In this document: in pieces, positions 9,083-34,752 of the stretch | How positions within the stretch are numbered: the first letter of the stretch is position 1 | How the letters are laid out: each line of letters starts with the position of its first letter | DNA from: Escherichia coli | GTDB taxonomy: Bacteria; Pseudomonadota; Gammaproteobacteria; Enterobacterales; Enterobacteriaceae | Strand: one strand, 5' to 3' | Assembly: GCF_046105845.1 (NCBI RefSeq) | Contig: NZ_CP151004.1 | Length of the DNA: 64,000 nucleotides | The notes under the pieces: generated by a model | Database searches by the model: none | What the model saw: the letters and a program-made list of their open reading frames with translations, nothing else | Told to the model about the DNA's origin: nothing | Made by a program: the position numbers and the translations under genes

Positions 9083-9084
9083 TG

Positions 9085-15995: not shown

Positions 15996-16506
15996 AAAGA
16001 CCTCGCCTGGATTTTTTTGACGATATGACTATAAAAAAAAACGAGGAAAAAGAATGGCTGACTTAATCGGCTAATCAGAAAAATTAATAGAGAACAAATA
16101 TTATAAAATTGCTTTTATGAACTATATGTTGTTAATTTATTAGTTGTTTTGTGGATATTTCAATGTGAATTAATTGCGTTGGCTAGTGAGTTTAATCGCG
16201 AGTAATATTTCGTTGAGTTTGGTTCGAGGAAGGAACTGTGATATTTGTTTCAATTTTATTATGTCATGATGGCAATTTTTTACTGTAAAAGTTTGGTGGA
16301 AATTATTACTTTCAACACTGATTAACGCTGTGTTGCATGATTCGGCAATGACAATAATTTGTTATGTTAGCACGATTTTTACACGAGTCTGTCATGCATG
16401 TTAGCAATATTTTCTGCAGAGCAATTTTTTATAGTTGCGCTCGATATACACAACAATCAGCGCATAGTTGGCTGATAAAGAAAAACTCCGTAAAGAAGGT
16501 GTCACT
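15996..16506. promoter_or_regulatory. Divergent AT-rich control region between pduA (minus) and pduF-pocR (plus)
   Basis: About 510 bp without coding potential, strongly AT-rich, between two divergently oriented gene starts; corresponds to the PocR-controlled pdu promoter region in Salmonella. Confidence 0.6.
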
Positions 16507-17316
16507 ATGAATGATTCACTCAAGGCGCAATGCGTTGCCGAGTTTTTGGGCACCGGACTGTTCCTCTTTTTTGGCATTGGTTGTTTGTGCGCCCTGAAAC
16601 TTGCCGGGGCAAGTCTGGGACTGTGGGAAATTTGTATCATTTGGGGGTTAGGGATTTCGCTTGCTGTTTACCTTACGGCAGGTATTTCCGGCGCTCATCT
16701 CAACCCGGCTGTTACCATTGCTCTGTGGCTGTTTGCCTCTTTCCCTGCCCGTAAAGTGCTGCCATTTTGTGTGGCGCAATTAGCGGGTGCCTTTGGTGGT
16801 GCGGTTCTGGCATATTTTCTCTACAGCAGTTTGTTTACCGATTTTGAATCTGCTCACAATATGGTGCGTGGTAGTGCAGAAAGTTTACAACTCGCCAGTA
16901 TCTTCAGTACTTATCCGGCAGCGGCGATTAATGTATGGCAAGCTGCGTTGGTCGAAGTGGTCATAACGTCCATGTTAATGGGGTTGATTATGGCGTTGAC
17001 CGATGACGGTAATGGCGTACCCAAAGGACCGCTTGCGCCTTTACTTATTGGTATTCTGGTTGCTGTTATTGGTGCTTCTACCGGACCATTAACCGGTTTT
17101 GCCATGAATCCAGCGCGTGATTTTGGACCTAAAATTTTCACCTGGCTTGCGGGTTGGGGGGAAATTGCGATGACTGGTGGACGCAATATTCCTTATTTCA
17201 TTGTACCCATTATTGCACCGATCATTGGCGCATGTGTTGGTGCGGCGATTTATCGCTATCTCATTGCAAAGAATTTACCTGTCAATAGTGTAACGCCTAA
17301 AGAAATTAGCGAATAA
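16507..17316 (+). CDS. pduF: PduF propanediol diffusion facilitator (MIP/aquaglyceroporin family)
   Basis: Internal ATG gives MNDSLKAQCVAEFLGTGLFLFFG; NPA motifs (HLNPAV and MNPARD) present; the supplied ORF carries an upstream extension. Confidence 0.9.
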   Translation: MNDSLKAQCVAEFLGTGLFLFFGIGCLCALKLAGASLGLWEICIIWGLGISLAVYLTAGISGAHLNPAVTIALWLFASFPARKVLPFCVAQLAGAFGGAVLAYFLYSSLFTDFESAHNMVRGSAESLQLASIFSTYPAAAINVWQAALVEVVITSMLMGLIMALTDDGNGVPKGPLAPLLIGILVAVIGASTGPLTGFAMNPARDFGPKIFTWLAGWGEIAMTGGRNIPYFIVPIIAPIIGACVGAAIYRYLIAKNLPVNSVTPKEISE

Positions 17317-17518
17317 CGAAATAATCTGGCAGTTATAAACGTTTATTTTTTTACTGTTTGTGATCTGCTTTCCGAACTTATTAAAAAGTCTCCCGCTTCA
17401 CGGAGGCTTTTGTTATTGTCCTTTGTGCTTCTCGTCAGTAAATCATCAGGGATGATGTGAAGATTAAATGTAAAACAATTGTTTTGCTATAACAATAAAT
17501 TAACTGGGAGGTTTTATC

Positions 17519-18433
17519 ATGATTTCTGCGGCGACACTTAATTCAGAACTCATTAATAAAATCGCGCAGGATTTTGCGCAGGCGACCAGCCTTGCGGTTG
17601 TCGTGGTCAATATTCACGGCGATGAAATTTCCGAGCTGTTTAACTTCACTCCATTTTGTCAGATGATGCGGCAACACCCTCAGCTAAGCACTCGATGTCG
17701 CATGAGCGATCGTTGTGGGGGCTTGGAAGCCTCTAAATCCGATCAGCCTTGTATTTATCGCTGTCATGCCGGATTAACCGATTTCTCTATTCCACTGGTA
17801 ATCGCCGGGCATTTAGTCGGTTTTGTATTGTGCGGGCAAGTTCGTCTGCGTAATGATGATGTCGATTTGGTCGATATTCTGAATGTCGATGATTGCTGGC
17901 AGGCAGATCCCGAATTACTTAATGAATTCCGCAAAGTTCCTGAGATGGATTACTCAAGAGTTATGGCCTCTGCTGATTTGTTGAAGTTGATTGTGGAAAA
18001 TTGCCTCAAAAAACAACTCAATTTTGTGGTTATTAAAGAGAACAAATCTCAGTCAGATTCGGTGCGCCAGACTCGTGCGCCTAATCCCCACGACAATAAA
18101 ATGAAAAAAGCTTTACGCTATATTGATGCGCATTTATCAGACGATTTGCGTCTGGAAGATGTCGCCTCACACGTTTATCTAAGCCCTTATTATTTCAGTA
18201 AGTTATTTAAGAAATACCATGGAATCGGGTTTAATGCGTGGGTAAACCAACAACGGATGGCCAGCGCTCGTGAGTTACTGTGCCATAGTGACTGGAGCAT
18301 CGCCAGCATTGCGCGTAATTTAGGTTTTTCACAAACAAGTTATTTTTGCAAAGTTTTCCGTCAGACTTATCAGGTTACGCCGCAGGTGTATCGACAGCAA
18401 GTGAGTGATAATGCGGCGATGGAAACGGTATAG
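17519..18433 (+). CDS. pocR: PocR, AraC-family activator of pdu/cob genes
   Basis: 304 aa; C-terminal AraC-type HTH region (LRYIDAHLSDDLRLEDVASHVYLSPYYFSKLFK); position after pduF. Confidence 0.9.
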   Translation: MISAATLNSELINKIAQDFAQATSLAVVVVNIHGDEISELFNFTPFCQMMRQHPQLSTRCRMSDRCGGLEASKSDQPCIYRCHAGLTDFSIPLVIAGHLVGFVLCGQVRLRNDDVDLVDILNVDDCWQADPELLNEFRKVPEMDYSRVMASADLLKLIVENCLKKQLNFVVIKENKSQSDSVRQTRAPNPHDNKMKKALRYIDAHLSDDLRLEDVASHVYLSPYYFSKLFKKYHGIGFNAWVNQQRMASARELLCHSDWSIASIARNLGFSQTSYFCKVFRQTYQVTPQVYRQQVSDNAAMETV

Positions 18434-18534
18434 AGTAAATGCCCCAAAAAAAGAGGACGGTTTAAATAAACTCTGCAATGAATAATTAACGTTATTTACC
18501 TGTTATGGGAAAAGTGAAATCAGCTCATAACATA

Positions 18535-18790
18535 CGCTGACAGGTGTGGCACATTTGTGCCTGGGAAGAGGGTGAAAATCCCTCGCAGCCCCCGCTGCTG
18601 TAATGCTGACAAACCCGAAAATGCCACTGATCGCGAGATTGGGAAGGTCGGGAGAGGATGACGCTAAGCCAGAAGACCAGCCAGTCAGTCAATACCAACA
18701 ACTTCGGTGGGAAGTGGGTTGCCCGGAAGCGTCCGGTAGAGTACCGGCGCGTCTTTATACCCCTACCACCCTGAAAGGATCAGGGTATGG
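18535..18790 (+). promoter_or_regulatory. Cobalamin (AdoCbl) riboswitch, leader of the former cbi operon
   Basis: Conserved aptamer core ggtgtggc...gcctgggaagagggtgaaaatccctcgcagcccccgctgctgtaatg...gccactg and B12-box-like taagccagaagaccagcc at 18666-18683; downstream stem accctga/tcagggt can sequester the aagga ribosome-binding site before the ATG at 18787. Confidence 0.8.
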
Positions 18791-18921
18791 CGGCATCATT
18801 TAGTTCTTTCATCGCAGTGCCGACAGGCACCAGGGCTGCACTTAAGGTGTGGCAATCTTGTTTCATGGCTCATCAACCAGACCGCCATTACAGGAAACTA
18901 AGTGGAGGGCGAGAGGCATGA
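18787..18921 (+). pseudogene. 44-codon mini-ORF, possible decayed 5' end of cbiA
   Basis: Starts MAA directly after the riboswitch, as cbiA does in Salmonella, but diverges after a few residues; stop TGA overlaps the next ATG (ATGA). Confidence 0.3.
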
Positions 18922-19355
18922 AAACGATAAAACCCGAATCGATAGCTCTTTTTTGCCTCTTATCTGGAGATGTGGATCTGGCGAAATATCTGGCTGAAAT
19001 ATTGCCAATAACCTGTTTTGTTGGTGAGGACTGGCAGCAAGATTTCCAGCCTCTTGATGGTGGGTCTGTGCAATCGTTATCAGATGTGTATGGCGATTAT
19101 TCAGTGCTGCTATTGATAGCAGCTGAAAGCGAGATATCCGTACCAGAATGGCTCGCTCATTCTGAAGGAACGACGGTAATTGTGATTGCAGAACACAATG
19201 CCCGTTTGCTGACTGGTCCGGCTGGTGGGGCTGTAGCATTGATCCATTATCTGAATGAAATCTGTCATTCCAGAGAAACCGCTGTCAATGACGCATTTTG
19301 TCGTACGTTAACACGAGGAAGTCTGGCTATTCCGCAATGCCATCTTCTTTCGTAA
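18918..19355 (+). CDS. Hypothetical protein, 145 aa, no family recognised
   Basis: ORF with ggaggg ribosome-binding site 8 nt upstream of ATG 18918; start overlaps the stop of the preceding mini-ORF; lies between the riboswitch and cobU. Confidence 0.4.
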   Translation: MKTIKPESIALFCLLSGDVDLAKYLAEILPITCFVGEDWQQDFQPLDGGSVQSLSDVYGDYSVLLLIAAESEISVPEWLAHSEGTTVIVIAEHNARLLTGPAGGAVALIHYLNEICHSRETAVNDAFCRTLTRGSLAIPQCHLLS

Positions 19356-19488
19356 TGGATTGAGAATGCTGGATTTTTAATTATATTACGCGCAGTATTA
19401 ATCGCGTAAATGTTTTGCGGTCAGCAACGGTGGGGGATCCATTGTTCTGTTCAATGAATACCATCATACAATTGAATCAGGAGTCGGT

Positions 19489-21926: not shown

Positions 21927-22853
21927 ATGATGCGTCGTGTAAATATTTTTTGGTCATTTGCTCTACTTTTTGCCAGCCATAATAGCCTGGCGGTAACTTA
22001 TCCATTACCTCCAGAGGGTAGCCGTTTAGTGGGACAGTCGCTTACTGTAACTGTTCCTGATCACAATACCCAGCCGCTGGAGACTTTTGCCGCACAATAC
22101 GGGCAAGGGTTAAGTAACATGCTGGAAGCGAATCCGGGCGCTGATGTTTTCTTGCCGAAGTCAGGCTCGCAACTCACCATTCCGCAGCAACTGATTTTGC
22201 CCGCCACTGTTCGTAAAGGGATTGTGATTAACGTCGCTGAGATGCGTCTTTATTACTACCCACCAGACAGTAATACTGTGGAGGTTTTTCCTATTGGTAT
22301 CGGCCAGGCTGGGCGAGAAACCCCGCGTAACTGGGTGACTACCGTTGAACGTAAACAAGAAGCACCAACCTGGACGCCAACGCCGAACACCCGGCGCGAA
22401 TATGCGAAACGAGGGGAGAGTTTGCCCGCATTTGTTCCTGCGGGGCCCGATAATCCCATGGGGCTGTACGCGATTTATATTGGCAGGCTATATGCCATCC
22501 ACGGTACCAATGCCAATTTTGGTATTGGGCTCCGGGTAAGTCAGGGCTGTATTCGTCTGCGCAATGACGATATCAAATATCTGTTTGATAATGTTCCTGT
22601 AGGTACTCGTGTTCAAATTATTGATCAGCCAGTGAAATACACAATGGAACCGGATGGTTCAAAGTGGCTGGAAGTTCATGAGCCGCTGTCGCGCAATCGT
22701 GCAGAATATGATTCTGACCGAAAAGTGCCATTGCCGGTAACCCCATCTTTGCGGGCGTTTATCAACGGGCAAGAAGTTGATGTAAATCGCGCAAATGTTG
22801 CGTTGCAACGTCGATCGGGAATGCCTGTGAATATCAACCGTAACGGATTTTGA
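21927..22853 (+). CDS. ldtA: L,D-transpeptidase LdtA (ErfK)
   Basis: 308 aa with signal peptide; YkuD-type catalytic motif [20 protein letters not shown]. Confidence 0.92.
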
Positions 22854-23014
22854 CATTCAAAACGTCTGGTTTGTCGGTCTGTGTAAGCATTCCGTCATGC
22901 AGAACAGGTTGTTTCGAATCATACAAATGATAATTTTCTTCTCATATGCGCATCTCTTATGAGCATAAACGTTATACTCTTCTGATTTATACATGTTTGC
23001 GGATGACATGATCA

Positions 23015-23992
23015 ATGGAAAAGAGAATGACGAAACAGAATAAAAACAGCCGTTGGCAGGGTTACGATCCTCGTTACATATACTCGCTCGTGGTCAGACG
23101 CTATTTTGCGGATATGAAAACCAAGATTGAGATTGCTGAGGAGCTTGGCGTTTCCCGCTTTAAAGTTGCCAGATTGATCGATGAGGCGATCGAACAGGAT
23201 TACGTGAGGTTTATCTTCCCTAAGCAGCAAGCGATGGATGAAGAAATCGCCAATAATCTACGGAAAAAATTTCATCTGGAAGATGCAATTGTTCTTTCAG
23301 TTGCTGAATCATGGACGACGCAAGAAGAACTCAATCACAAATTGGGTGAAGTCACCGCTGAATATCTTACGCAATCTCTTCATGAAGGTATGAAAGTGGG
23401 GATCGCCTGGGGACGTGTATTATCAAGTACGGTCAGTAAGTTGAGCAAGCTGCCTCCTTTAGACGTTGTGCAGTTATCTGGCGTACATCCGGGGATTGAG
23501 TTTAGTCAAGGGCCAATAGATCTTATTCATAAGATCGCTGCCATTTCGCAGGGAAAAGCGCACCCAATGTACGTGCCGATGTGGGTCGATGACGAAGAGC
23601 TTGCTGCCAGACTGGCAGGTGATCCTGCGGTATTAGATACACAGCAATATTACTCACAGTTGGATGTGGTTATCACCGGGATAGGTGACTGGAAATCAGG
23701 TTCTTCAAGCTTGTGTAAAATATTTCCGGATACCTGGTGCGAAGCTTTGTTTCAACAAGATATCGCTGCGGATGTGTGTATCTCGTTGGTCAGCAGGGAA
23801 GGGAAGATTCTTCATAGTCCTATTGAACGTCTGGGATTTGGCATTTCGACGGATCAACTACAAAAAGCCAAAAAAGTGATTGGTGTCGCCGGAGGGGAAG
23901 AGAAATATGAAGGCATTCTTGCTTCGCTGAAATCTGGACTTTTGAATGTCTTAATTACTGATTTTGATACGGCCATTAAACTTCTGGATTAA
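23015..23992 (+). CDS. SorC/DeoR-type sugar-binding transcriptional regulator
   Basis: 325 aa; N-terminal HTH (KIEIAEELGVSRFKVARLIDEA) and C-terminal sugar-phosphate-binding domain (VGIAWGRVL...VIGVAGGEEK). Confidence 0.8.
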   Translation: MEKRMTKQNKNSRWQGYDPRYIYSLVVRRYFADMKTKIEIAEELGVSRFKVARLIDEAIEQDYVRFIFPKQQAMDEEIANNLRKKFHLEDAIVLSVAESWTTQEELNHKLGEVTAEYLTQSLHEGMKVGIAWGRVLSSTVSKLSKLPPLDVVQLSGVHPGIEFSQGPIDLIHKIAAISQGKAHPMYVPMWVDDEELAARLAGDPAVLDTQQYYSQLDVVITGIGDWKSGSSSLCKIFPDTWCEALFQQDIAADVCISLVSREGKILHSPIERLGFGISTDQLQKAKKVIGVAGGEEKYEGILASLKSGLLNVLITDFDTAIKLLD

Positions 23993-24009
23993 TAGCCGTA
24001 TCTGTGAAG

Positions 24010-24038
24010 AAAGGGCAGTACCGCTGATTCTGCCCTTT
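24010..24038. terminator. Bidirectional hairpin between convergent regulator and PTS IIA gene
   Basis: Inverted repeat aagggcag...ctgccctt followed by tttaattt. Confidence 0.55.
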
Positions 24039-24043
24039 TAATT

Positions 24044-24502
24044 TCAGGATGCTGCGAGCGTATCCTCTACATATTTAGCCACGCGCGTTGCAGGTAAATT
24101 GCGGCAAGTCTCAACAAAGGCGTTATCCTGAAACAGTGTGAATAAACGACGCAATATCGACATATGTTGATCACTGGTGGCAAATGCCAGGTTAAACATA
24201 ATGCTACAATCAACTGTTAAAGCAGCATCTTCCATCTGTCCGAAAGTGACATCATTGGAGAAACGAACAATACTGATGCTGTTTACATTTACCAGCGTGT
24301 AATCGGCATGGGGAATGGCGATACCCTGACCGTTTGCCATCATTAATCCTGTCGGATAGCTTTTTTCACGTTCCAGACAGGCGTCAATGTATTCTGCAGT
24401 GATGTAGCCTTTTTCCAATAATTGCGTACCAGCAAAGGTGATCGCCGTTTGATAGTCGTTGATGCTGTTATCAACATCATTTACCAGAATTTCAAATTTC
24501 AT
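24044..24502 (-). CDS. PTS EIIA component (fructose/mannitol/galactitol type 2 family)
   Basis: 152 aa; conserved histidine context GQGIAIPHADYT typical of EIIA-2 domains. Confidence 0.8.
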   Translation of the reverse strand: MKFEILVNDVDNSINDYQTAITFAGTQLLEKGYITAEYIDACLEREKSYPTGLMMANGQGIAIPHADYTLVNVNSISIVRFSNDVTFGQMEDAALTVDCSIMFNLAFATSDQHMSILRRLFTLFQDNAFVETCRNLPATRVAKYVEDTLAAS

Positions 24503-24512
24503 TGCACACCTG

Positions 24513-24797
24513 TTATTTCAGTATCTCTTCTTTAACTGCAGCGAAAATCTCATCTTCGCCCAGACCAGTCAGTAATCCAGCGCCAACGATGACACGAGTA
24601 GTAATGGCCGGGTTATCGAGTTTGGTCGATGAAACCACCAGGTCATAGCTGTTGAAGGTATCGCTGGTGCATGCCATTAACGAAGATTTATCGACTTGCG
24701 CTTCAATTTTCTCTTCTTTCAGTAAGTCCTGCAGTACAGAGACCATGATGGAAGATGAGGCAATTCCGTTTCCGCAAACTACTAAGATTTTTTTCAT
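24513..24797 (-). CDS. PTS EIIB component (galactitol/lactose-type)
   Basis: 94 aa; N-terminal MKKILVVCGNGIASSS with phosphorylatable cysteine. Confidence 0.8.
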   Translation of the reverse strand: MKKILVVCGNGIASSSIMVSVLQDLLKEEKIEAQVDKSSLMACTSDTFNSYDLVVSSTKLDNPAITTRVIVGAGLLTGLGEDEIFAAVKEEILK

Positions 24798-24820
24798 TTG
24801 ATTATTCCTCTGTAAAAGAT

Positions 24821-26191
24821 TTAAAGCGCTTTTTCTAAATCCGTTTCAATCTGGCGACGTGATTTTTGTTTAATTAAGTATCCAATAGATAACAAAAGGA
24901 TACCTGCCATCACATAGCCAATGATTCCAACATGGCTCAGGGCGGCAAACAGACCAGTAAATGGATTCGCAGACGGGTTAAGCGAAGAGTACATCACGCT
25001 GGCATCCGGGTTTGTACCAAACTTCTGGAAGACTTCGTTGGTAGCCGGTGCCATCCACGATGCAATATACAGACCACCACCGAACAAAATGATCGAGGTC
25101 ACCCAGGTGCGAATAATGTTGCCATTGAAAACAGGCACCATGCAGGCAATGAAAAACACAAACTGAGAGAGGTCACCCAGTGGCATAACGCGGTTGCCGG
25201 GCAAGATCACTGCGAGGATCACAATCACCGGGATCAGTAATAATGCCGGGGCGATAACTGACGGATGACCCACAATCAGGGCAGTGTCCATTCCAACAGT
25301 GATTTGACGATCCGGGAAACGTTTGACCAGTTTTTTGCGTGCCACGTTGGAAAGCGGAACAAGCCCTTCCATCATGATAGAGGTCATACGTGGCAACAGA
25401 AGCATGACTGCAGCCAGATACATCCCTAACTGTAGGCTGGCAATTATGGTGTGGTAGGGGGATTTCCAGCCATAACCACAAAAGCCCAACAAAATACCAA
25501 TAATAAAACCAACCATAGTTGGATCGCCCAGAATGCCAAACCGTTTTTGAATAGTTTCGGCGGTCACATTCAGATTACGGAAGCCTGGGATGCGATCATA
25601 AATCCAGTTGAATGGATAAGCGAAAAGTAAGTAGGTATTGGCAACCGGGTGAGAGATCGCAACACCTTTTGGCAGGTTAAAGAATTTTTCGTTATTTTTA
25701 GCACCGAGATCGGCAGCGATCAGCGCCCAGACATGGAATAGCGCGGCGGTCAATGCGCCATACAGGAAGCTACCAGAATAGACGCCAACAATTGCCCCCA
25801 TTGACGCATTTTGATGAAGGTTGAAAACATCAACGTTAACACAGTCAGTCAGGCGGGCGACCAGCATTGCAATATTTACCGCAACACAGAGGGGAATAAT
25901 GATAGCGCCCATGCTGGAGCCAAATCCCATCACTGCAGTCGCTGCGCCACCAACATCGATGGCACTGAGCGAGGAACCTGTTGCTTCTGCTAATCCGGTG
26001 ACTGCCGGTTGCATTTTTTCCAGCATCAGTTTGATGGTCATGGTTAGCGCAATGAAACCAATGCCGACTTTGATGGCGGAGGAGATACATTCTGAAAGAG
26101 GACGGCCAAGTATCTTCATCAGTACCAGAAAGATGACCGGGATAAATATAAAATTTCCCAGATCGTTTATAAATTGCGTGATCAGTTCCAT
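24821..26191 (-). CDS. PTS EIIC permease, galactitol (GatC) family
   Basis: 456 aa polytopic membrane protein; resembles GatC/SgcC-type EIIC. Confidence 0.8.
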   Translation of the reverse strand: MELITQFINDLGNFIFIPVIFLVLMKILGRPLSECISSAIKVGIGFIALTMTIKLMLEKMQPAVTGLAEATGSSLSAIDVGGAATAVMGFGSSMGAIIIPLCVAVNIAMLVARLTDCVNVDVFNLHQNASMGAIVGVYSGSFLYGALTAALFHVWALIAADLGAKNNEKFFNLPKGVAISHPVANTYLLFAYPFNWIYDRIPGFRNLNVTAETIQKRFGILGDPTMVGFIIGILLGFCGYGWKSPYHTIIASLQLGMYLAAVMLLLPRMTSIMMEGLVPLSNVARKKLVKRFPDRQITVGMDTALIVGHPSVIAPALLLIPVIVILAVILPGNRVMPLGDLSQFVFFIACMVPVFNGNIIRTWVTSIILFGGGLYIASWMAPATNEVFQKFGTNPDASVMYSSLNPSANPFTGLFAALSHVGIIGYVMAGILLLSIGYLIKQKSRRQIETDLEKAL

Positions 26192-26194
26192 ACA

Positions 26195-26731
26195 TTAACC
26201 CTCAGATTTTTCATCATCTGGTCGGAAACCCATATTCCAGCGTACATCAGCGGGCTTAACCAGCAATGCATTATCGTTACGTTCAGCTTCTAGTAAGTTC
26301 TTTTTAGAATTTTCTCTGGCGGTGGTGAAGTCGAATGGGTTATCCAACCATGCATCGACAATCATTTTGCTGTATTCGAGATCGTTGACCCGGCAACCCA
26401 GTCCAATAACTTGTGCGTTATTGCTGAGTCGCGCCCGCTTTGCGGAGTAGGGGTTAGTAACCGCAACGGCTCTTATGCCCCAGTGTTTGTTGATCTGACA
26501 AGTAAAGCCAATGCCAGTCCCACAAATGTAAATTCCCAGACGGCACTCATCGCGTTGAATAATGCCTGCCATTTCGTCGGCTAGACGCGCGAAGTTATTG
26601 ACACCTTGTTCCTTACATGTGACGGGATCGTACACGATCTCCATGTTTTTCTCTTCTATGAGGTATTTTTTTATCTCCTCTTTACGTGCAAAACCTACAT
26701 CATCGCTTGCGATAGCAATCTTCGTTTTCAT
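26195..26731 (-). CDS. RpiB/LacAB-family sugar-phosphate isomerase with C-terminal extension
   Basis: 178 aa; motif GIYICGTGIGFTCQINKHWGIRAVAV resembles the RpiB active-site region; first gene of the minus-strand PTS operon. Confidence 0.75.
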   Translation of the reverse strand: MKTKIAIASDDVGFARKEEIKKYLIEEKNMEIVYDPVTCKEQGVNNFARLADEMAGIIQRDECRLGIYICGTGIGFTCQINKHWGIRAVAVTNPYSAKRARLSNNAQVIGLGCRVNDLEYSKMIVDAWLDNPFDFTTARENSKKNLLEAERNDNALLVKPADVRWNMGFRPDDEKSEG

Positions 26732-27079
26732 TTCATTTTGCCTGTCGTTAAGTAACTAAAGCCAAGTATGCTGTTGGTAAATATTGGTTGTCAATTGAGA
26801 TCTAAATCACAAAATTTATAACTGATTGATTTTTATGATAAAAAAAACCAATAAAAACAAATAAAAAATAAATTAAGCCAATTGAGACAAATTGGGATTG
26901 TACAGTGGCGTTGTAATGAATAATAAAAACTCATTTATTATCAATCGGATATATGGTTTTTGAACTATTGTCTTTATTGGGTTTATTTGTACTTTCCACT
27001 GTTAGTGTTTGTTTTTGTTTGCATCATCTGTGCTATGCTTGGCGTTTTCTAAGATGGGTAATAGATTTCAGGAGGAAGG
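26732..27079. promoter_or_regulatory. AT-rich divergent control region between the minus-strand PTS operon and the DeoR-family regulator gene
   Basis: About 350 bp, very AT-rich, no coding potential, flanked by divergent gene starts. Confidence 0.5.
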
Positions 27080-27835
27080 ATGTATCTGGTTGATGAAAGG
27101 CGAAAGTTAATACTTGAAGACTTAATGTCGGCAGGTACGGTCTATGTCAGTGATCTTGCACGAAAGTATGAAGTAACGTATGAGACCATCAGGAAAGATT
27201 TGACCCATCTTGAACAAAAAGGGCTGCTGATCAAAAGCCATGGTGGGGCGACTTTAAAGCAAAGGGCCATAGAGCATCCCTTTCAGGTCAGGGAAAAAGA
27301 AAATAACTCTTATAAGAAGGCGATAGCTCGTAAAGCGCTTGATTTCATTCCGCCTAATAGTTCGATGATTATCGGTACGGGCAGTACCACTTTTGAGCTG
27401 GCTAACCTGTTATGTATGAAGTCTGGGTTTAAAATCTTCACAGATTCGCTCCCCGTTGCCAGTGTGTTGATTGAATCTGACAATCAGGTTTTTCTCTTTG
27501 GCGGCGAACTGCGTAGAAAGAGTTCCTCAGTGTTTGGGGGGTGGGCGGTATCTATGATCAACGATATACATGTTGATCTCTGTTTCATTGGAACCGACGG
27601 TTTTAGTAACATGACTGGTCCATCGACGCCTTCTTCTTCTGATGCGTTTTTGGATCGCACGATAATTTCGCACTCAGACAAAAAATATATCCTCGGTGAT
27701 TACACCAAGTTTGAGCGCAGCAGTTTGTTTAAGATCTGCGACTGGTCGGAGATCACCGCCCTTATTACCAACGATCATGCCGACAAAGAGGGGATTGCCG
27801 AAGTCGCAAAATACACGTCAGTAATAACCTGTTAG
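27080..27835 (+). CDS. DeoR-family transcriptional regulator
   Basis: 251 aa; N-terminal HTH (VYVSDLARKYEVTYETIRKDLTHLEQKGLL) and C-terminal DeoR sugar-binding domain. Confidence 0.85.
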   Translation: MYLVDERRKLILEDLMSAGTVYVSDLARKYEVTYETIRKDLTHLEQKGLLIKSHGGATLKQRAIEHPFQVREKENNSYKKAIARKALDFIPPNSSMIIGTGSTTFELANLLCMKSGFKIFTDSLPVASVLIESDNQVFLFGGELRRKSSSVFGGWAVSMINDIHVDLCFIGTDGFSNMTGPSTPSSSDAFLDRTIISHSDKKYILGDYTKFERSSLFKICDWSEITALITNDHADKEGIAEVAKYTSVITC

Positions 27836-28010
27836 AACTCACTACGACACGCCTTCTCTCTTCGAATCAGCTTTGCCAAATGTAATCATTTCATAATTAT
27901 CAAGTGAGCATCCATGGCGATGCTTGCTTAGCGCCCTCTATTGAATACATCCTCTACATATTGCCAGTTTCACTTCATTTTTAGCGACGAAATCATTTTT
28001 TGAATCACGA

Positions 28011-28152
28011 TTTGCTCATATGAGCGTAAATAGTGTCGCCATTATGTGATTTTTTGTGATCTGGATTTAATTTCTCAGATCTCGTCATTTGTCCACAGGA
28101 TCGTTGTGCTATAACTGCTCATATGAAGGTTGTTCAATGCTCATGTGAGCAT
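28011..28152. promoter_or_regulatory. Three palindromic operator-like sites upstream of the plus-strand PTS operon
   Basis: tgctcatatgagcg (28013-28026), gctcatatga (28117-28126) and aatgctcatgtgagcatt (28137-28152) share the inverted-repeat core GCTCAT-ATGAGC. Confidence 0.5.
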
Positions 28153-28172
28153 TGGGGGTGAGGGGGAAGGAT

Positions 28173-28616
28173 ATGATATCGATCAGTGTTGCCGATGGTG
28201 CGGGACTACAGAACTACGATGCCGTGCTTGAACATATTTATAACACGCATCGTGAAACGAATACGGTGAAAGAGAGCTGGCTCAATGCTATGCGTAAACG
28301 CGAAGCGGAATATCCGACAGGAATAGAACTGGAAGGTTATTCTATCGCTATACCACACTGTGATAGTGAACATGCGAATCAACCGGCTATTTACATCATC
28401 CGTCTGCCAGACGCAATACCTGTGAACAGGGCTGATGAAGATGGAATATTGTGGGTCAGACTGGTCGTTAATATCATTGTTACGGATCCTGCTGACCAGC
28501 TTCGATTGTTAAAGTCATTATTTAACCATCTCCAAAATGAAGAATTCTACCAAAACTTACTGACACTTCCCGTCGAGGATGCAAAAGCACTTTTTGTATC
28601 CAGGATAATCCAATAG
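28173..28616 (+). CDS. PTS EIIA component (type 2 family)
   Basis: Probable start at second ATG (ggaagga ribosome-binding site); conserved histidine context YSIAIPHCDSE. Confidence 0.8.
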   Translation: MISISVADGAGLQNYDAVLEHIYNTHRETNTVKESWLNAMRKREAEYPTGIELEGYSIAIPHCDSEHANQPAIYIIRLPDAIPVNRADEDGILWVRLVVNIIVTDPADQLRLLKSLFNHLQNEEFYQNLLTLPVEDAKALFVSRIIQ

Positions 28617-28634
28617 TAAAAACTGGAGTTTATT

Positions 28635-28928
28635 ATGATTAATATTCTTGTTGCTTGTGGTAGCGGTGTCGCTACATCTACGCTTGCTGCTGATGAAGTG
28701 AAGTCAGTATGTGCTGAATATGGTATTACGGCATTTAAAATCAACAAATGCAGTATGGCTGAACTTTCTTCTGAGATGGCTCATGCAGATATTGTACTCA
28801 CAACTAATAATTATAAAGGTGATATTGGGAAACCACATATGAGCGTTGCAGGTTTTGTAACGGGTATTAATGAAGGAGCATTACGCAAGAAATTAGGAGA
28901 GTTATTAACTGAATTAGCAAATAGCTAA
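28635..28928 (+). CDS. PTS EIIB component (galactitol-type)
   Basis: 97 aa; MINILVACGSGVATST with phosphorylatable cysteine. Confidence 0.8.
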   Translation: MINILVACGSGVATSTLAADEVKSVCAEYGITAFKINKCSMAELSSEMAHADIVLTTNNYKGDIGKPHMSVAGFVTGINEGALRKKLGELLTELANS

Positions 28929-28948
28929 ACCTGACAGGAATAATAAAA

Positions 28949-30202
28949 ATGGAAATGTTGAAAAATTTAATGGAAACAATCACCGGAATGGGGGCGACTG
29001 CAATACTGCCGCTGGTGATATTTATTTTAGGTCTGGTGTTCAGAATGAAACCAGGTGCCGCGATCAAGTCGGGCATCACCGTCGGTATTGGTTTTATTGG
29101 TTTAGGTTTAGTTGTTGGTTTATTAAATAGTTCATTACAGCCAGCTATCGAGTATTACTCAAAAGTAGGCAGTGGTTTTACGGTTGCAGATATTGGTTGG
29201 CCAGCAGTCGGTGCGGCTGCATGGGTAGCACCTTTTGCCGCATTAGTGATACCAGTTGGCATCGTACTTAACCTGATTCTGGTGCGCCTGAAATTAACCA
29301 AAACGTTAAATGTTGATATCTGGAACTATATGCATTTTTTAGTTCCGGGCGCTCTGGCATATTTTGTGTTCGACAGTTTTATCATCGGCTTCTCTGTCGC
29401 GGTGGCTTTGAGTATTGCGGCCCTGTTTATTGGCGATTTGATTGCGCCCAGATGGCAAAAATATTATGGACTCGAGGGAACAACCTGTACCACGATGATT
29501 CATATCGGCTGGACTCTACCGTTCGCCTGGGTAGTAAATAAAATCATTGATTACATCCCTGGGTTAAATAAGTTAGATGTTGACTTAAACAGTGTGCAAA
29601 AACGCCTGGGTGTCTTTGGTGAACCTGCAATTATCGGTGTTATCGTTGGCGCATTACTCGGAGTTTTAACGAAACAGGCAATTACCACAATTGTTCCCAT
29701 GGCGATGGGGGTTGCTGGTGTAATGGTATTGTTACCTAAAGTGGTCGGTGTGCTGATGGAAGGTCTTAACCCGATTGGGAAAAGTGCCAAAGAAATCATG
29801 CAAAAACAGATGGGTAAAGATGCTGAATTAAACATCGGTATGGATTGTGCACTGGCGTTGGGGGATCCGGCGACGGTCACCGTGACAGTCATTACCATTC
29901 CTTTAACTATGCTATGTGCTCTGGTATTGCCTGATATTAAGATCTTCCCAATTGGCGTATTGATGTCAATTATTTATATGACCACCATGACCGTAATGGC
30001 GAGCAACGGTAACGTGATTCGTTCGATTATCTCGACCTTGTTATTCTGCGTTGTAGTGATGTATTTAGGCGGTTATGTCGCACCAGGGGCAACGCAATTT
30101 TTAGCTGGAGCCGGTGTAGGCTTGCAAGGACAAGGTACTGATTTTGTATTAACCGGCCCGTGGGAAATTTTAACCTATTGGTTGAGCACCGTATTACATT
30201 GA
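28949..30202 (+). CDS. PTS EIIC permease, galactitol (GatC) family
   Basis: 417 aa polytopic membrane protein of GatC/SgcC type. Confidence 0.8.
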   Translation: MEMLKNLMETITGMGATAILPLVIFILGLVFRMKPGAAIKSGITVGIGFIGLGLVVGLLNSSLQPAIEYYSKVGSGFTVADIGWPAVGAAAWVAPFAALVIPVGIVLNLILVRLKLTKTLNVDIWNYMHFLVPGALAYFVFDSFIIGFSVAVALSIAALFIGDLIAPRWQKYYGLEGTTCTTMIHIGWTLPFAWVVNKIIDYIPGLNKLDVDLNSVQKRLGVFGEPAIIGVIVGALLGVLTKQAITTIVPMAMGVAGVMVLLPKVVGVLMEGLNPIGKSAKEIMQKQMGKDAELNIGMDCALALGDPATVTVTVITIPLTMLCALVLPDIKIFPIGVLMSIIYMTTMTVMASNGNVIRSIISTLLFCVVVMYLGGYVAPGATQFLAGAGVGLQGQGTDFVLTGPWEILTYWLSTVLH

Positions 30203-30224
30203 TTTAATAATCTGGAGTTTTAAC

Positions 30225-30869
30225 ATGGCAAAAATATTACCTTCTATATTTGGCGCGGATATTTTACGCCTGAAAGATGAAATTCATTTTCTGGAAGAGG
30301 AACAAACCGAAATATTGCACGTTGATTTAATGGATGGCACTTACGTCAGTAATATTGCCTTTGGCCCAAATCAAATTGCAGCAATGAAAAAAGCCAGTTC
30401 GATGATCTTTGACGTGCATATGATGCTGGCAAATCCTGAGCGACATATTGATGATGTAATCAATACCGGGGCGGAGATGATTTCTGTACATTATGAGTCG
30501 ACGCCACATGTGCATTATATTATTCAAAAAATCAAAAAAGCGGGGCGCAAAGCAGGTGTTGTGCTTAATCCTGGGACACCTGAATCTGTCATCGAGTATT
30601 TATTAGATGATATTGATTATATATTGTTAATGACAATTAATCCGGGGCAACTAGGCCAGACATTTATTCATAAAAGCCTGGAGAAAATCCGTAACACCAA
30701 AAAATTGATATCTGGCAGAGATATTCAAATTGAAGTGGATGGTGGCGTTAATCTTGATAATGTGAAACAAGTTAAAGAAGCGGGGGCTGACCTTATTGTT
30801 GTTGGCGGTGCATTATTTAACAAACAGCCTCATGAAAGTTATCAGGCATTAAAAATCGCTGTTCAGTGA
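30225..30869 (+). CDS. Ribulose-phosphate 3-epimerase family protein (ketose-phosphate 3-epimerase)
   Basis: 214 aa; N-terminal LPSIFGADILRLKDE matches the RPE SILSAD signature region; metal-binding His/Asp residues present. Confidence 0.8.
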   Translation: MAKILPSIFGADILRLKDEIHFLEEEQTEILHVDLMDGTYVSNIAFGPNQIAAMKKASSMIFDVHMMLANPERHIDDVINTGAEMISVHYESTPHVHYIIQKIKKAGRKAGVVLNPGTPESVIEYLLDDIDYILLMTINPGQLGQTFIHKSLEKIRNTKKLISGRDIQIEVDGGVNLDNVKQVKEAGADLIVVGGALFNKQPHESYQALKIAVQ

Positions 30870-30964
30870 TCATAATCTAAAAATTTTACATCCAGCTAAG
30901 TGAGGTTTTCGATTTCATATCGGGAGGAAAACCCCAACTAAAAAGTCTTTAATGGAGAAAAGTA

Positions 30965-31717
30965 ATGAGTAATTTTGCAGGTAAAGTGGTTTTAGTTACC
31001 GGAGGTGCTCACGGTATTGGCAAAGGGATAGCTAAACAATTTGCTGATCGTGGTGCACATACTGTTATTGTTGACTATAACGAAGAGAACGGCAAGGCCA
31101 CTGCAGCAGAGTTAACTTTTGGCGATGTTAAATCGCTGTTTGTTAAAACAGATGTCTCCGATCCACAGGCATTAGTGGATGTACGGGAAAAAGTATTTGC
31201 TACCTTTGGTCGTATTGATGTGTTGATATTAAATGCCGGTGTGGCATTTGCCAATAAAGTTAACAATATTTCTTTTGAGGAATGGAATAAGACTATCGCA
31301 ATTAACTTATCGGGATTATTTAATACCGTTAAGGCATTTTATGATGATTTCCTGACAAATAAGGGATCTATTGTTTATATCTCATCGGGATCAGCGCTTT
31401 CGGGGACTGGGGGCGGCGTGAGCTATCCTGCCAGTAAAGCGGGAGGCGAAGGATTGATTCGTGGTCTGGCAAAAGAGTTAGGACCAAAAGGCGTAAATGT
31501 TAATGCGATTGCTCCCCGCTTAATAGACACCGGAGATATGATGCGGGTCAACTATCCAACACAAGCCGATTTAGACGCTGTCCTGGAAAAAATACCCGTC
31601 CGTCGTCTGGGGACTATCGATGATGTGGCTAACCTGGCAATATTTTTGGCAGATAAAGATAACTCTTATATTCAGGGACAAACCATTTTAATGGATGGTG
31701 GCCGGACTATTGCTTAA
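30965..31717 (+). CDS. Short-chain dehydrogenase/reductase (SDR) family oxidoreductase
   Basis: 250 aa; Rossmann motif VTGGAHGIGKG and catalytic YPASK. Confidence 0.85.
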   Translation: MSNFAGKVVLVTGGAHGIGKGIAKQFADRGAHTVIVDYNEENGKATAAELTFGDVKSLFVKTDVSDPQALVDVREKVFATFGRIDVLILNAGVAFANKVNNISFEEWNKTIAINLSGLFNTVKAFYDDFLTNKGSIVYISSGSALSGTGGGVSYPASKAGGEGLIRGLAKELGPKGVNVNAIAPRLIDTGDMMRVNYPTQADLDAVLEKIPVRRLGTIDDVANLAIFLADKDNSYIQGQTILMDGGRTIA

Positions 31718-31732
31718 AAAGGGAGAGGAAAA

Positions 31733-32293
31733 ATGAGTGTTCAGGAAAATACTCTTAATATTCTGCATGAATTAGAGAGTAATGCACTGAAGATTGACGA
31801 TGCTCAGGCTGCACAGTTTATTTCGCAAATCAGAAATGCCCGGCATATTTTTTTGCAGGGAGCTGGGCGCAGTGGCATTGCTATTCGCGCTTTTGCTAAT
31901 CGCTTGCTGCATTTAGGTTTTTCAGTAAGCGTTGTGGGAGAAATATCATCACCGCATACCCAACCTGGAGATCTATTAATTATTGGGTCAGGCAGTGGTG
32001 AAACTACCAGTTTAAAAAGTCTGGCACAAAAAGCAGTTGATAGCGGAGTAAACGTAGCTCTGGTAACTATGAAAGCAGATTCGACGATCGGTAAATTAGC
32101 TCAATCTGTGTTGGTACTACCAGGAAGTGTGAAAGACGATAACAATCGTGTTGCAGGCGCTTTCGCACAACCAATGGGATCGGCTTTTGAGCAGCTCTGC
32201 TTTATTACTTATGATGCAATTGTTCTGGAGTTGATGTCTGAACTGGGTGAAAGCAGTGCCACAATGTTTACCCGACACGCTGATCTGGAATGA
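31733..32293 (+). CDS. SIS-domain sugar-phosphate isomerase (6-phospho-3-hexuloisomerase-like)
   Basis: 186 aa; SIS-domain features (FLQGAGRSG ... LLIIGSGSGETT) and size typical of PHI-type isomerases. Confidence 0.7.
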   Translation: MSVQENTLNILHELESNALKIDDAQAAQFISQIRNARHIFLQGAGRSGIAIRAFANRLLHLGFSVSVVGEISSPHTQPGDLLIIGSGSGETTSLKSLAQKAVDSGVNVALVTMKADSTIGKLAQSVLVLPGSVKDDNNRVAGAFAQPMGSAFEQLCFITYDAIVLELMSELGESSATMFTRHADLE

Positions 32294-32317
32294 CCAAAGA
32301 GTTGGTAATTAGAAAGT

Positions 32318-32346
32318 AAAAAGCCTGCTTGAAAGCAGGCTTTTTT
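32318..32346. terminator. Bidirectional rho-independent terminator between the SIS gene and tRNA-Asn
   Basis: aaaagcctgcttgaaagcaggctttttt: perfect hairpin flanked by A-run and T-run. Confidence 0.8.
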
Positions 32347-32351
32347 GAATT

Positions 32352-32427
32352 TGGCTCCTCTGACTGGACTCGAACCAGTGACATACGGATTAACAGTCCG
32401 CCGTTCTACCGACTGAACTACAGAGGA
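32352..32427 (-). tRNA. asnV: tRNA-Asn (anticodon GUU)
   Basis: Reverse complement is the 76-nt E. coli tRNA-Asn TCCTCTGTAGTTCAGTCGGTAGAACGGCGGACTGTTAATCCG...GAGGAGCCA. Confidence 0.95.
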
Positions 32428-32752
32428 ATCGTGTGAACGGGGCGCATATTAATGGCAGTGCATGGTGATGTCAAAGGGTGAAATGCATTTTTTTGTTTGT
32501 TTGCTGTCAATTTCAACAAAGTGGTGAGCTTTCAATCTTATTGGTAATGAACCATCGTGGTGCATACCCTCCTTTTATGGGGCAGGGGAACGCGACAGCT
32601 GATAAAAAGAGCCAATGACGAACCTATCATAATCTCTTATTTGACAGTTGGTTAGCTTGTACATCAACGCCAAAATAAAACTGGCAAGCATCTTGCAATC
32701 TGGTTGTAAGTAATGGCGGCACTTGGGCCGATTCTTAAAAACCGGAGGCAAC

Positions 32753-33670
32753 ATGAACTTCAGACGCCTGAAATACTTCGTAAAAATTGTAGATATTGGT
32801 AGCCTGACCCAGGCTGCTGAAGTATTGCATATCGCACAACCAGCGCTCAGTCAGCAGGTTGCCACACTGGAAGGTGAGTTAAATCAACAACTTTTGATTC
32901 GCACAAAACGGGGCGTTACGCCAACTGACGCCGGAAAAATTCTCTATACCCATGCGCGGGCCATTTTACGTCAGTGTGAGCAGGCCCAACTGGCGGTGCA
33001 TAACGTTGGTCAGGCATTATCGGGGCAAGTCTCGATTGGCTTTGCGCCAGGAACCGCTGCGTCATCCATCACCATGCCCTTATTACAGGCGGTTCGCGCT
33101 GAATTCCCGGAGGTCGTTATCTATCTTCATGAAAATAGCGGTGCAGTACTTAACGAAAAACTGATAAATCATCAACTCGATATGGCGGTGATTTATGAGC
33201 ATTCCCCTGTGGCTGGTGTATCCAGCCAGGCTTTGCTGAAAGAAGATCTTTTCCTGGTAGGAACTCAAGATTGCCCGGGGCAAAGCGTTGATGTTAATGC
33301 TATTGCGCAAATGAACCTCTTTCTCCCCAGTGATTACAGTGCTATTAGACTTCGTGTTGATGAGGCTTTTTCCCTACGGCGACTCACGGCAAAAGTCATT
33401 GGTGAAATTGAGTCTATTGCCACGCTTACCGCAGCGATTGCTAGCGGCATGGGCGTTGCAGTATTACCCGAATCGGCCGCGCGTTCGTTATGTGGCGCAG
33501 TAAATGGTTGGATGTCACGCATTACCACTCCTTCCATGAGTCTCTCTTTGTCATTAAATTTACCCGCCAGAGCGAACTTATCGCCACAGGCACAGGCAGT
33601 GAAAGAGTTGTTAATGTCAGTGATGAGTTCTCCAGTGATGGAAAAAAGGCAGTGGCAATTGGTGAGCTAA
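32753..33670 (+). CDS. nac: Nitrogen assimilation control protein Nac (LysR family)
   Basis: Internal start MNFRRLKYFVKIVDIGSLTQAAEVLHIAQPALSQQV (LysR HTH); 305 aa. Confidence 0.92.
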   Translation: MNFRRLKYFVKIVDIGSLTQAAEVLHIAQPALSQQVATLEGELNQQLLIRTKRGVTPTDAGKILYTHARAILRQCEQAQLAVHNVGQALSGQVSIGFAPGTAASSITMPLLQAVRAEFPEVVIYLHENSGAVLNEKLINHQLDMAVIYEHSPVAGVSSQALLKEDLFLVGTQDCPGQSVDVNAIAQMNLFLPSDYSAIRLRVDEAFSLRRLTAKVIGEIESIATLTAAIASGMGVAVLPESAARSLCGAVNGWMSRITTPSMSLSLSLNLPARANLSPQAQAVKELLMSVMSSPVMEKRQWQLVS

Positions 33671-33771
33671 GCGTTATATCGGGATGGAATAAGATGCGGG
33701 TTTTTATTATTTGTTATGCCGGGCATTAGACTTTAACAATAACGGGAAATCTGAACTGCCCGGAGTTTACC

Positions 33772-34722: not shown

Positions 34723-34723
34723 C

Positions 34724-34752
34724 AAAAAGCCCGCTATAAAAGCGGGCTTTTC
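34724..34752. terminator. Bidirectional rho-independent terminator between cbl and tRNA-Asn
   Basis: aaaagcccgctataaaagcgggcttttc hairpin. Confidence 0.75.

Follow-up and report, generated by a model that had tools for sequence, protein, structure and literature searches.

Some Escherichia coli genomes carry, between ldtA and the tRNA-Asn gene asnV, a block of accessory genes that encodes an RpiB-like sugar-phosphate isomerase and a phosphotransferase system (PTS), and this locus raises the question of which genes belong together in it and which sugar or polyol they serve. We analyzed the locus in a stretch of 64,000 nucleotides (hereafter the window; contig NZ_CP151004.1 of assembly GCF_046105845.1), for which a sequence-only reading had grouped a SorC-type regulator, the isomerase and three PTS genes into one accessory cluster whose substrate could not be read from sequence. 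From this analysis it is very probable that the region is composed of two self-contained PTS modules, a first one that contains the isomerase and is accompanied by a DeoR-type regulator, and a second one that is accompanied by the SorC-type regulator. As to the chemistry, we propose, with a probability of roughly 0.35-0.4, the PTS-dependent uptake of a tetrulose, followed by its isomerization to erythrose-4-phosphate by a 6-phospho-3-hexuloisomerase (PHI)-like enzyme and the RpiB-like enzyme.

The five genes lie where they had been placed, as judged from the list of open reading frames (ORFs) and from Pfam matches with E-values of 1e-10 to 1e-64. Four of them form an operon on the minus strand that encodes the RpiB-like isomerase of 178 residues (26195..26731; LacAB_rpiB, 1.3e-33; 'ICGTG' motif), an EIIC protein of the galactitol (Gat) family of 456 residues (24821..26191; EIIC-GAT, 9.2e-64), EIIB (24513..24797; PTS_IIB, 1.9e-10; active-site Cys in 'VVCGNG'), and EIIA (24044..24502; PTS_EIIA_2, 3.7e-25; phosphorylatable His in 'GIAIPH'). 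The fifth gene, sorC (23027..23992, plus strand), encodes a SorC-family sugar-binding regulator (Sugar-bind, 1.3e-49); this start is the one assigned by PGAP, as in strain NRG857C, and the longest ORF begins at 23015. A hairpin, GGGCAG-N11-CTGCCC, with T-runs on both strands (24013..24035) is placed between the convergent sorC and EIIA genes. The DeoR/GlpR-family regulator (27080..27835, plus strand; HTH_DeoR and DeoRC) is transcribed divergently from the isomerase operon; neither this gene nor the promoter of the operon (26762-26811) was included in the cluster as originally drawn.

The transporter is of the galactitol type, as had been stated; its EIIC-GAT domain and separate EIIA (His) and EIIB (Cys) proteins place it in the Gat family (TC 4.A.5). 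By sequence comparison it appears to be an orthologue of neither GatABC nor SgcABC: EIIC shows 33% identity with GatC, 34% with SgcC, 29% with the other EIIC of the island, and 70-95% with the cassette orthologues of other phyla; EIIB is 35% identical to SgcB, and the NCBIfam models for GatA (79.5, cut-off 139), GatB (22.2, cut-off 95) and EIIC-GAT (TIGR00827; 350.7, cut-off 542.2) are all missed. Similar to the gat and sgc operons, the cassette includes three separate proteins with EIIA_2, PTS_IIB and EIIC-GAT domains and a DeoR-type regulator nearby, and the sgc operon also contains an Rpe-like epimerase; in contrast, the cassette has an RpiB-family isomerase instead of a tagatose-pathway enzyme (GatD/Y/Z). 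No SgcQ- or SgcX-like gene is present in the island, and the substrate of Sgc is itself not known. All the substrate-specific NCBIfam models (GatA/B/C-type, RpiB, LacA/B, DerI) remained below cut-off for the operon proteins, and neither the literature searches nor NCBIfam revealed an orthologue of established substrate.

Full-length homologues of the isomerase, with 62-90% identity, are found in Citrobacter, Klebsiella, Enterobacter, Providencia, Proteus, Vibrio, Orbus and Gilliamella, and in Paenibacillus, Enterococcus, Streptococcus gallolyticus, Lactiplantibacillus, bee-gut Lactobacillus, Tetragenococcus, Mitsuokella and Thermophilibacter. The gene order was tabulated for 33 isomerase-anchored and 79 EIIC2-anchored loci, and the neighbours within 10 kb were counted in 27 non-redundant isomerase loci. 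A PHI homologue was present in all 27, a DeoR regulator in 23, and a SorC regulator in only four, each time together with the second module; no further neighbour family was recurrent in these loci. The recurrent cassette (module 1) is therefore formed by deoR, divergent from isomerase-EIIC-EIIB-EIIA-PHI, and it was with DeoR, not with SorC, that the isomerase operon should have been grouped. On conjugative IncF plasmids of Klebsiella it has six genes in the order deoR / isomerase-IIC-IIB-IIA-hxlB (L136 5686-10071), without sorC or module 2, and the isomerase is encoded, at about 90% identity, on at least 38 plasmids of Klebsiella and Enterobacter. Module 1 travels as a unit through Proteobacteria, Firmicutes, Actinobacteria, Negativicutes, and the conjugative plasmids of Klebsiella and Enterobacter. 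The partner PHI proteins reach 187-210 bits with the HxlB model (cut-off 160), a likeness to the HxlA/HxlB pair of the ribulose monophosphate pathway; the differences are that no cassette locus has HxlA, and that the cassette is a sugar PTS operon and not a system for formaldehyde fixation.

Citrobacter and K. oxytoca share the two-operon island of E. coli, but have retained the PHI gene, located between EIIA and sorC. The first module is devoid of it in every E. coli copy examined, as well as in Enterobacter wuhouensis, Entomohabitans and Providencia. No PHI remnant was detected in the EIIA-sorC gap of E. coli, so the deletion is clean, and the hairpin at 24013..24035 is homologous to the one that separates EIIA from PHI in Citrobacter and K. 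oxytoca. The 52%-identical PHI paralogue of module 2 is the only PHI left in the E. coli island. The view of the cluster as an autonomous unit has consequently to be abandoned, given that its own PHI is lost in E. coli and that it is nested inside the other module. In Klebsiella, Citrobacter, Vibrio and strain LSJC7 (L015 12684-12735; L008 11125-11200; L038 ~12680-12750) EIIA and PHI are likewise separated by a terminator-like hairpin, and the cassette PHI may be expressed by read-through or attenuation. In Enterococcus and bee-gut Lactobacillus there is a third adjacent module that includes EIIA, EIIC, EIIB, an Rpe-like protein (34-37% identity) and a PHI-like protein (L027 4613-8600; L082, L084, L086 and L091 ~760-2000; L032/L033 13374-17900), and a single RpiB-like gene can thus be surrounded by as many as three PTS modules, every one of which has a PHI of its own.

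Module 2 occupies 28173..32293 on the plus strand, and encodes EIIA (28173-28616), EIIB (28635-28928), EIIC (28949-30202), an Rpe-family protein (30225-30869), a short-chain dehydrogenase/reductase (SDR; 30965-31717), for which PDB and NCBIfam gave just generic FabG/BudC-like matches, and PHI/HxlB (31733-32293). Stand-alone loci with the order sorC-EIIA-EIIB-EIIC-Rpe-SDR-PHI were detected, in which the isomerase operon is not in the flanks (L077, L078, L080, L093), and in Vibrio cholerae sorC immediately precedes module 2, with the deoR cassette after it. Because in these loci sorC directly precedes module 2, we conclude that in Enterobacterales module 1 is inverted between sorC and the module-2 promoter, and that sorC is only apparently part of module 1. 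The distribution of a TGCTCA-N2-TGAGCA palindrome, which we propose as the SorC operator, agrees with this assignment. In the window it forms a cluster upstream of module 2 (27897..28151, plus strand; copies at 27897, 28013, 28116 and 28138), and two to four copies precede the module-2 EIIA gene in the SorC-bearing loci examined, including those that carry SorC only. It is not present at the isomerase promoter (26732-27079), in cassette-only loci, or in the Firmicute versions that have a PRD-type regulator, and SorC is not encoded in any of the module-1-only loci or plasmids examined. Two degenerate copies with two mismatches each, TTCTCATATGCGCA and TCTCTTATGAGCAT (22939..22966, plus strand), are located upstream of sorC and may be an autoregulation site.

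In three of these stand-alone loci a divergent operon encodes a XylB-like FGGY kinase (389.9, cut-off 380.25), an RbsB-like binding protein, a permease and an ABC ATPase (L078 ~13464, L080 ~15912, L093 13636-18751); the same TGCTCATATGATCA box is found about 100 bp upstream of the kinase gene, and hence this operon is likely a second SorC target. The isomerase operon has a predicted promoter/operator of its own (26762..26811, minus strand), recognized from a multiple alignment and a promoter scan, with a CRP-like site TGTGATTTAGATCTCA (26811-26796), a -35 box TTGACA (26794-26789), a -10 box CATACT (26770-26765), and the repeats ACCAA-N6-ACCAA and CCAA-N8-TTGG (26788-26762) that fill the 18-nt spacer. 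Promoter and terminator scans alone performed at chance level, and the credibility of this call comes from its conservation in Enterobacterales, Vibrio, Orbus and Gilliamella, the latter with a perfect TGTGA-N6-TCACA CRP-like site. Co-occurrence and conservation suggest that SorC regulates module 2, through the TGCTCA-N2-TGAGCA boxes at the promoters of sorC itself and of module 2, and that DeoR, as the regulator of the isomerase cassette, would repress the isomerase operon, and CRP would activate it, through the ACCAA/CCAA-TTGG repeats and the TGTGA-N6-TCTCA site, respectively.

The isomerase is a member of the RpiB/LacA/LacB superfamily with a C-terminal extension, in agreement with the sequence-only reading: it exceeds the generic model TIGR00689 (99.7, cut-off 88.3), has the invariant C70 in the GTG loop, and its AlphaFold model is a confident RpiB fold (predicted local distance difference test, pLDDT, 95.9) that Foldseek aligns to RpiB structures with a template-modelling (TM) score of 0.77 and a root-mean-square deviation (rmsd) of 1.4-1.7 Å to 1nn4/2vvr. 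It misses the RpiB equivalog model TIGR01120 (103.8, cut-off 138.65), has no RHxxR motif, and falls widely short of the LacA and LacB cut-offs. With E. coli RpiB/AlsI and AlsE the cassette shares the RpiB fold, the catalytic Cys in 'CGTG' and the presence of an Rpe-family epimerase in the same island; the isomerase differs from RpiB/AlsI in sequence (35% identity), in the replacement of His10, His99 and His134, in the extra tail, and in that uptake occurs by a PTS and not by an ABC transporter plus a kinase. The galactose-6-phosphate isomerase LacAB belongs to the same family, and LacB has about 30 extra C-terminal residues (PMC3755991); nonetheless, identity is 26%, the rmsd is 4.5 Å, the cassette has a single gene instead of an A/B pair, and its tail is predicted as coil and not as helix.

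E. coli RpiB has 149 residues, as does the PDB chain 2vvr_A, against 178 in the isomerase; sequence alignments with solved RpiB structures end at residues 134-155, and structural ones near residue 154. Residues 140-156 match the last RpiB helix, so that the true extra tail comprises residues ~157-174, which are predicted as coil with pLDDT >90, and include the invariant or near-invariant positions K159, P160, W165, N166, M167, G168 and F169. The extension is thus real, and its earlier description as unusual has to be qualified, since it is invariant throughout this tight subfamily, whose members, from E. coli as far as Firmicutes, are 62-90% identical. Among 1.84 billion representatives, clustered at 50% identity, the subfamily comprises one full-length cluster and one sister at 46%, after which only generic RpiB scores follow.

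In the active site, Cys66 and Thr68 of E. coli RpiB are retained as Cys70 and Thr72, and D11, S103 and S142 (the latter from a hand alignment of 'NSKKN') stand where the canonical enzyme has His10, His99 and His134, with an Arg at position 99 (= R95). In the nearest family representatives, of which 141 were scored at position 99 and 126 kept for the class analysis, two sets of co-varying residues were seen: a His class (n=87) with H10, L/M95, H99, R133, H134 and R137, and a Ser class (23-32 members) with a non-His residue at 10, R95, S99, S134 and K/N137. The E. coli isomerase shows the Ser-class pattern (non-His 10, Arg95, Ser99, Ser134), and so does EryI from a complete ery locus of Rhizobium, which exceeds the model NF051858 for D-erythrulose-4-phosphate isomerase (257.6, cut-off 240) and whose local motif aligns with that of the isomerase ('RLSNNAQ' and 'ALSNNAQ'). 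That locus (L127) encodes a kinase, a dehydrogenase, EryC, the SorC-type EryD, a DeoR-type regulator, a TIM-type isomerase and an RpiB-type isomerase. Further proteins of the Ser class include fusions to Dak2 or HPr domains; others have as genomic neighbours a TIM-type gene together with DhaL and an EI-like gene, or have an EryC-type gene next to them. Several Ser-class proteins (P0137, P0144, P0147, P0174, P0213) pass the NCBIfam cut-offs for ribose-5-phosphate isomerase B without having any of the three active-site His residues, and automatic 'RpiB' names in this class may be wrong. The gene for P0137 lies in a different Gat-type PTS cluster with the dehydrogenase subunits E1-alpha and E1-beta, a small lipoyl protein and YjbQ (L133 216-5051), and a similar EIIC-EIIB-YjbQ start is present in Tetragenococcus (L011). 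Placement of the isomerase in the Ser class by overall similarity or by a neighbour-joining tree was also attempted, and gave no signal; apart from its sister and a few atypical members, no protein grouped with the isomerase. By model cut-offs, then, the isomerase does not appear to be RpiB, LacA/B or DerI; it combines a DerI-type active-site pattern with a tail of its own, and would seem suited to a small sugar phosphate in open-chain form, perhaps that of the four-carbon sugar erythrulose. The statement that the substrate is unreadable from sequence is only partly correct, given that the active-site pattern and the constant PHI partner narrow the options considerably.

Two-isomerase modules in which the RpiB-family enzyme has the same His replacements (S99, R95, S134) are known from Brucella and Rhizobium, with EryH (TIM-type) and EryI (RpiB-type), and from Mycolicibacterium, with LerI and DerI. 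The ery locus is also similar in that a DeoR-type regulator adjoins the isomerase pair and a SorC-type regulator adjoins the dehydrogenase and epimerase genes. In contrast, uptake in the cassette depends on a PTS and not on an ABC transporter with an FGGY or Dha-type kinase, the partner isomerase is a SIS/PHI protein and not a TIM-type enzyme, the cassette isomerase has a conserved tail of 20-25 residues, and the Rpe-like protein and the SDR of module 2 are unrelated to EryC and EryB. The known route from L-erythrulose-1-phosphate to D-erythrulose-4-phosphate and then to erythrose-4-phosphate consists of one ketol shift and one RpiB-family step (PMC10733421). Since the cassette is formed by a PTS and two isomerases and no more, the phosphorylated substrate should be two isomerizations away from central metabolism; the PTS would import and phosphorylate a rare sugar, and the two isomerases alone would yield a central metabolite. 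L-erythrulose would be phosphorylated on C1 to give L-erythrulose-1-phosphate (= D-3-tetrulose-4-phosphate); through a carbonyl shift, the same type of 3-ulose to 2-ulose conversion as in the hexulose reaction, the PHI-like enzyme would form D-erythrulose-4-phosphate, and the RpiB-like enzyme would convert this product into D-erythrose-4-phosphate, as EryI and DerI do. Module 2 would feed one or more tetritols into the same route by means of the SDR and the Rpe-like epimerase, its SDR, Rpe-like protein and PHI paralleling EryB, EryC and EryH one for one, and in E. coli its PHI would replace the one lost from module 1. The third module of Enterococcus could serve another stereoisomer, with all modules converging on the single RpiB-like gene. 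We infer that a two-isomerase cassette fits the end of a tetritol route, and an equally simple hexose or pentose route with precedented reaction types could not be written.

Several observations weigh against the tetrulose proposal. The isomerase itself is well below the NF051858 (EryI/DerI) cut-off (99.7 versus 240), and the shared pattern could be convergent, because in overall identity the isomerase is no closer to the Ser class (37.4%) than it is to the His class (36.4%). EryI lacks the tail, and the subfamily has its own invariant residues K82-H83-W84 and W165-N166-M167-G168-F169. The sister clade (P0124; 46% identity, tail present, 'SQN' motif) is encoded on a 3-kb contig between two 3-hexulose-6-phosphate-synthase-like genes (L128 779-2825), one of which passes the HxlA cut-off, a setting that hints at hexulose chemistry. 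To our knowledge no SIS enzyme acts on a tetrulose phosphate, and with L-erythrulose PHI would probably have to work with a stereochemistry opposite to the one of its hexulose reaction. In module 2, Rpe scores as a genuine ribulose-phosphate 3-epimerase (232.8, cut-off 212.6) and PHI/HxlB is above its cut-off as well (209.7, cut-off 160). The stand-alone module-2 loci have no RpiB-family gene nearby, although an isomerase could be encoded elsewhere in these genomes, and their kinase and ABC transporter genes behind the same palindrome suggest five-carbon substrates. The prediction that module 2 never occurs without an RpiB-like gene failed when these loci appeared in a metagenome scan, and the support that it had lent to tetrulose was withdrawn. 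Finally, no experiment on any member of the cassette was found in the literature.

The score of Rpe is what would be expected of a pentose/pentitol island, in which module 2 would take up a pentitol (D-arabitol, ribitol or xylitol), the SDR would produce ribulose-5-phosphate or xylulose-5-phosphate and Rpe would interconvert them, and in which module 1 would handle a related pentose, e.g. D-arabinose, with the SIS protein acting as arabinose-5-phosphate isomerase and the RpiB-like enzyme converting ribulose-5-phosphate to ribose-5-phosphate. The stand-alone loci point in this direction, with their RbsB-like protein and a XylB-like kinase above the xylulokinase cut-off under the same palindrome; Gat-family pentitol PTS operons with RpiB and Rpe genes occur in Listeria and Enterococcus, and a Ser-class isomerase could still act on open-chain ribulose-5-phosphate. 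We nevertheless regard this possibility as unlikely, given that the SIS proteins match HxlB and not KdsD/GutQ, the three His residues used by ribose-5-phosphate isomerases are all replaced, PHI would have no role in module 2, and the isomerase would be superfluous beside RpiA, although it is kept together with PHI in every one of the 27 loci. A rare hexose (D-allose, D-psicose, also known as allulose, or allitol) would account for other features: both PHI proteins score as true 6-phospho-3-hexuloisomerases, the sister clade is placed between HxlA-like genes, E. coli RpiB is an allose-6-phosphate isomerase and AlsE an Rpe homologue, and in length the isomerase resembles LacB, which acts on hexose phosphates and has an additional element at its C-terminus (PMC3755991). 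On this view the RpiB-like enzyme would convert allose-6-phosphate to psicose-6-phosphate, which would proceed via 3-hexulose-6-phosphate, by PHI, to fructose-6-phosphate, and in module 2 a hexitol phosphate would be oxidized and the Rpe-like protein would be an AlsE-type 3-epimerase. This scheme requires either that an RpiB-family enzyme acts on C2/C3 or that PHI epimerizes psicose-6-phosphate, neither of which has precedent; the ring-opening His99, important for allose-6-phosphate and ribose-5-phosphate, is an invariant Ser, the tail is modelled as coil and not as the LacB helix, and the AlsE model is missed (177.7, cut-off 271), for which reasons we consider it quite improbable. The Klebsiella psicose locus (PMC6020474) is a different system, and the allose and allulose loci of Listeria and C. 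innocuum are different systems too.

Two further explanations concern the organization of the locus. If the isomerase, EIIC, EIIB and EIIA genes formed a single stand-alone operon under SorC that imports a phosphosugar or polyol, the adjacent, convergent position of sorC would be explained, and SorC-family regulators commonly sense sugar phosphates; this is very improbable in view of the absence of SorC from module-1-only loci and plasmids, its position upstream of module 2 in Vibrio and in the stand-alone loci, the lack of the palindrome at the isomerase promoter, and the presence of DeoR as the conserved regulator of the cassette. That the E. coli locus is a cryptic, decaying remnant, whose pathway is no longer supported after the loss of PHI, appears hardly credible. 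The PHI deletion in all the E. coli copies examined would agree with decay, and so would the left-anchored fragments of the island, the internal stop and the IS5 insertion described below; in contrast, in the window all the ORFs are intact and the promoter is conserved, the PHI paralogue is still in the island, and the four operon genes, over 880 codons, show ratios of nonsynonymous to synonymous substitution (dN/dS) of 0.008-0.14 across pairs within E. coli. Because of these values we conclude that the isomerase operon is maintained by strong purifying selection in E. coli. Between NRG857C and ATCC 8739 the four genes have 39 nucleotide differences and a single amino acid change in 880 codons, and divergence at synonymous sites between E. 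coli alleles, these two included, is 0.06-0.07, with proteins nearly unchanged.

According to an alignment with K-12, the island extends over positions ~22830-32295 of the window (9.47 kb) between ldtA and asnV, which in K-12 are separated by just 55 bp; its genes are not in K-12 and are indeed accessory, as originally proposed. The GC content is 0.428, against 0.488 in the 10 kb on the left. At the left junction (22830..22853, plus strand) the K-12 ldtA homology stops at 22829 and the last 11 K-12 ldtA codons are replaced, so that LdtA ends in ..PVNINRNGF* instead of ..PVQISSGSRQMF*. At the right junction (32296..32427, minus strand) the homology resumes at ~32296 and is followed by the common terminator (32318-32345) and the asnV tRNA-Asn gene (32352-32427). 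The 12 ORFs of the island could all be assigned, and no integrase is among them; an island of the tRNA-integrase type was rejected on this basis, together with the position of one junction in the 3' end of ldtA and the intact terminator and asnV, although direct repeats were not searched for.

Any part of the island is found in 280 of 5426 complete E. coli genomes, and at least 80% of it in 225; the cassette is present in ~4-5% of complete genomes, and the carriers include the adherent-invasive strain NRG857C and the laboratory strain ATCC 8739. About 55 of the 280 genomes hold fragments only, anchored at the left end, which amount to 60%, 31%, 21%, 11% or 2% of the island length; this suggests a stepwise deletion from the asnV side. 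The sole mention of the island that we found in the literature is a gene table of a Shiga toxin-producing E. coli O156:H25 (PMC5359238). The bovine isolate EC26 has an internal stop in the cassette deoR gene (L139 4521-5276), and is therefore a candidate natural constitutive expresser, and in a chicken isolate (strain VTB97074v) IS5 is inserted in the island. In NRG857C the gap between hxlB and asnV contains an insertion not present in the window (L001 23821-32401), with two very large hypothetical proteins and an ATP-dependent nuclease + UvrD-helicase pair, which we take to be Gabija-like; in ATCC 8739 a large hypothetical gene is also located between hxlB and asnV (L137 from 11467).

Upstream of the island are pdu, pocR, a cobalamin riboswitch, cobUST and ldtA, and downstream asnV. 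The complete propanediol-utilization (pdu) microcompartment operon, with pduF, pocR and the riboswitch (1-19400), is directly upstream of cobUST-ldtA, as in NRG857C; beyond cobU, K-12 has a cryptic prophage and IS5 in its place. The window also includes four tRNA-Asn genes and a tRNA-Ser(CGA) gene (spans 32352-36659 and 51908-53064), and an ORF of 2895 amino acids on the minus strand adjoins one of the tRNA-Asn genes (42983-51670).

The cassette is an ordinary kind of PTS sugar operon that encodes an uncharacterized and very tightly conserved isomerase subfamily, and it is present not only in E. coli and on plasmids but also in Lactiplantibacillus, Enterococcus, Streptococcus gallolyticus and bee-gut symbionts. 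Whatever the substrate is, annotation can draw on two of the results: the corrected assignment of the regulators, and the two-class split of the active site in the RpiB family, the latter because many Ser-class proteins pass the 'ribose-5-phosphate isomerase B' models. It is doubtful, although conceivable, that this is the first pathway in which four-carbon sugars and polyols (L-/D-erythrulose, erythritol, threitols) enter through a PTS, and that plasmids and islands have carried it into gut Enterobacterales, lactic acid bacteria and bee-gut symbionts. Except for the last step, its enzymes would be unrelated to the Ery/Ler/Der set; in such a pathway a PHI-type SIS protein would replace the TIM-type EryH/LerI, an Rpe-type protein EryC, the SDR EryB, and the PTS the kinase. 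L-erythrulose is a breakdown product of vitamin C. According to one study, L-erythrulose inhibits K-12, which is unable to use it, and tetrose uptake is not known, with a PTS as a speculation (bioRxiv 10.1101/2024.11.09.622817). If the tetrulose proposal is true, some strains of E. coli, Klebsiella and Lactiplantibacillus could use the sweetener erythritol and/or L-erythrulose, and a tetrulose or tetritol as the substrate would answer the question, open in the literature, of how bacteria take up tetroses, and would show which gut strains consume erythritol or erythrulose.

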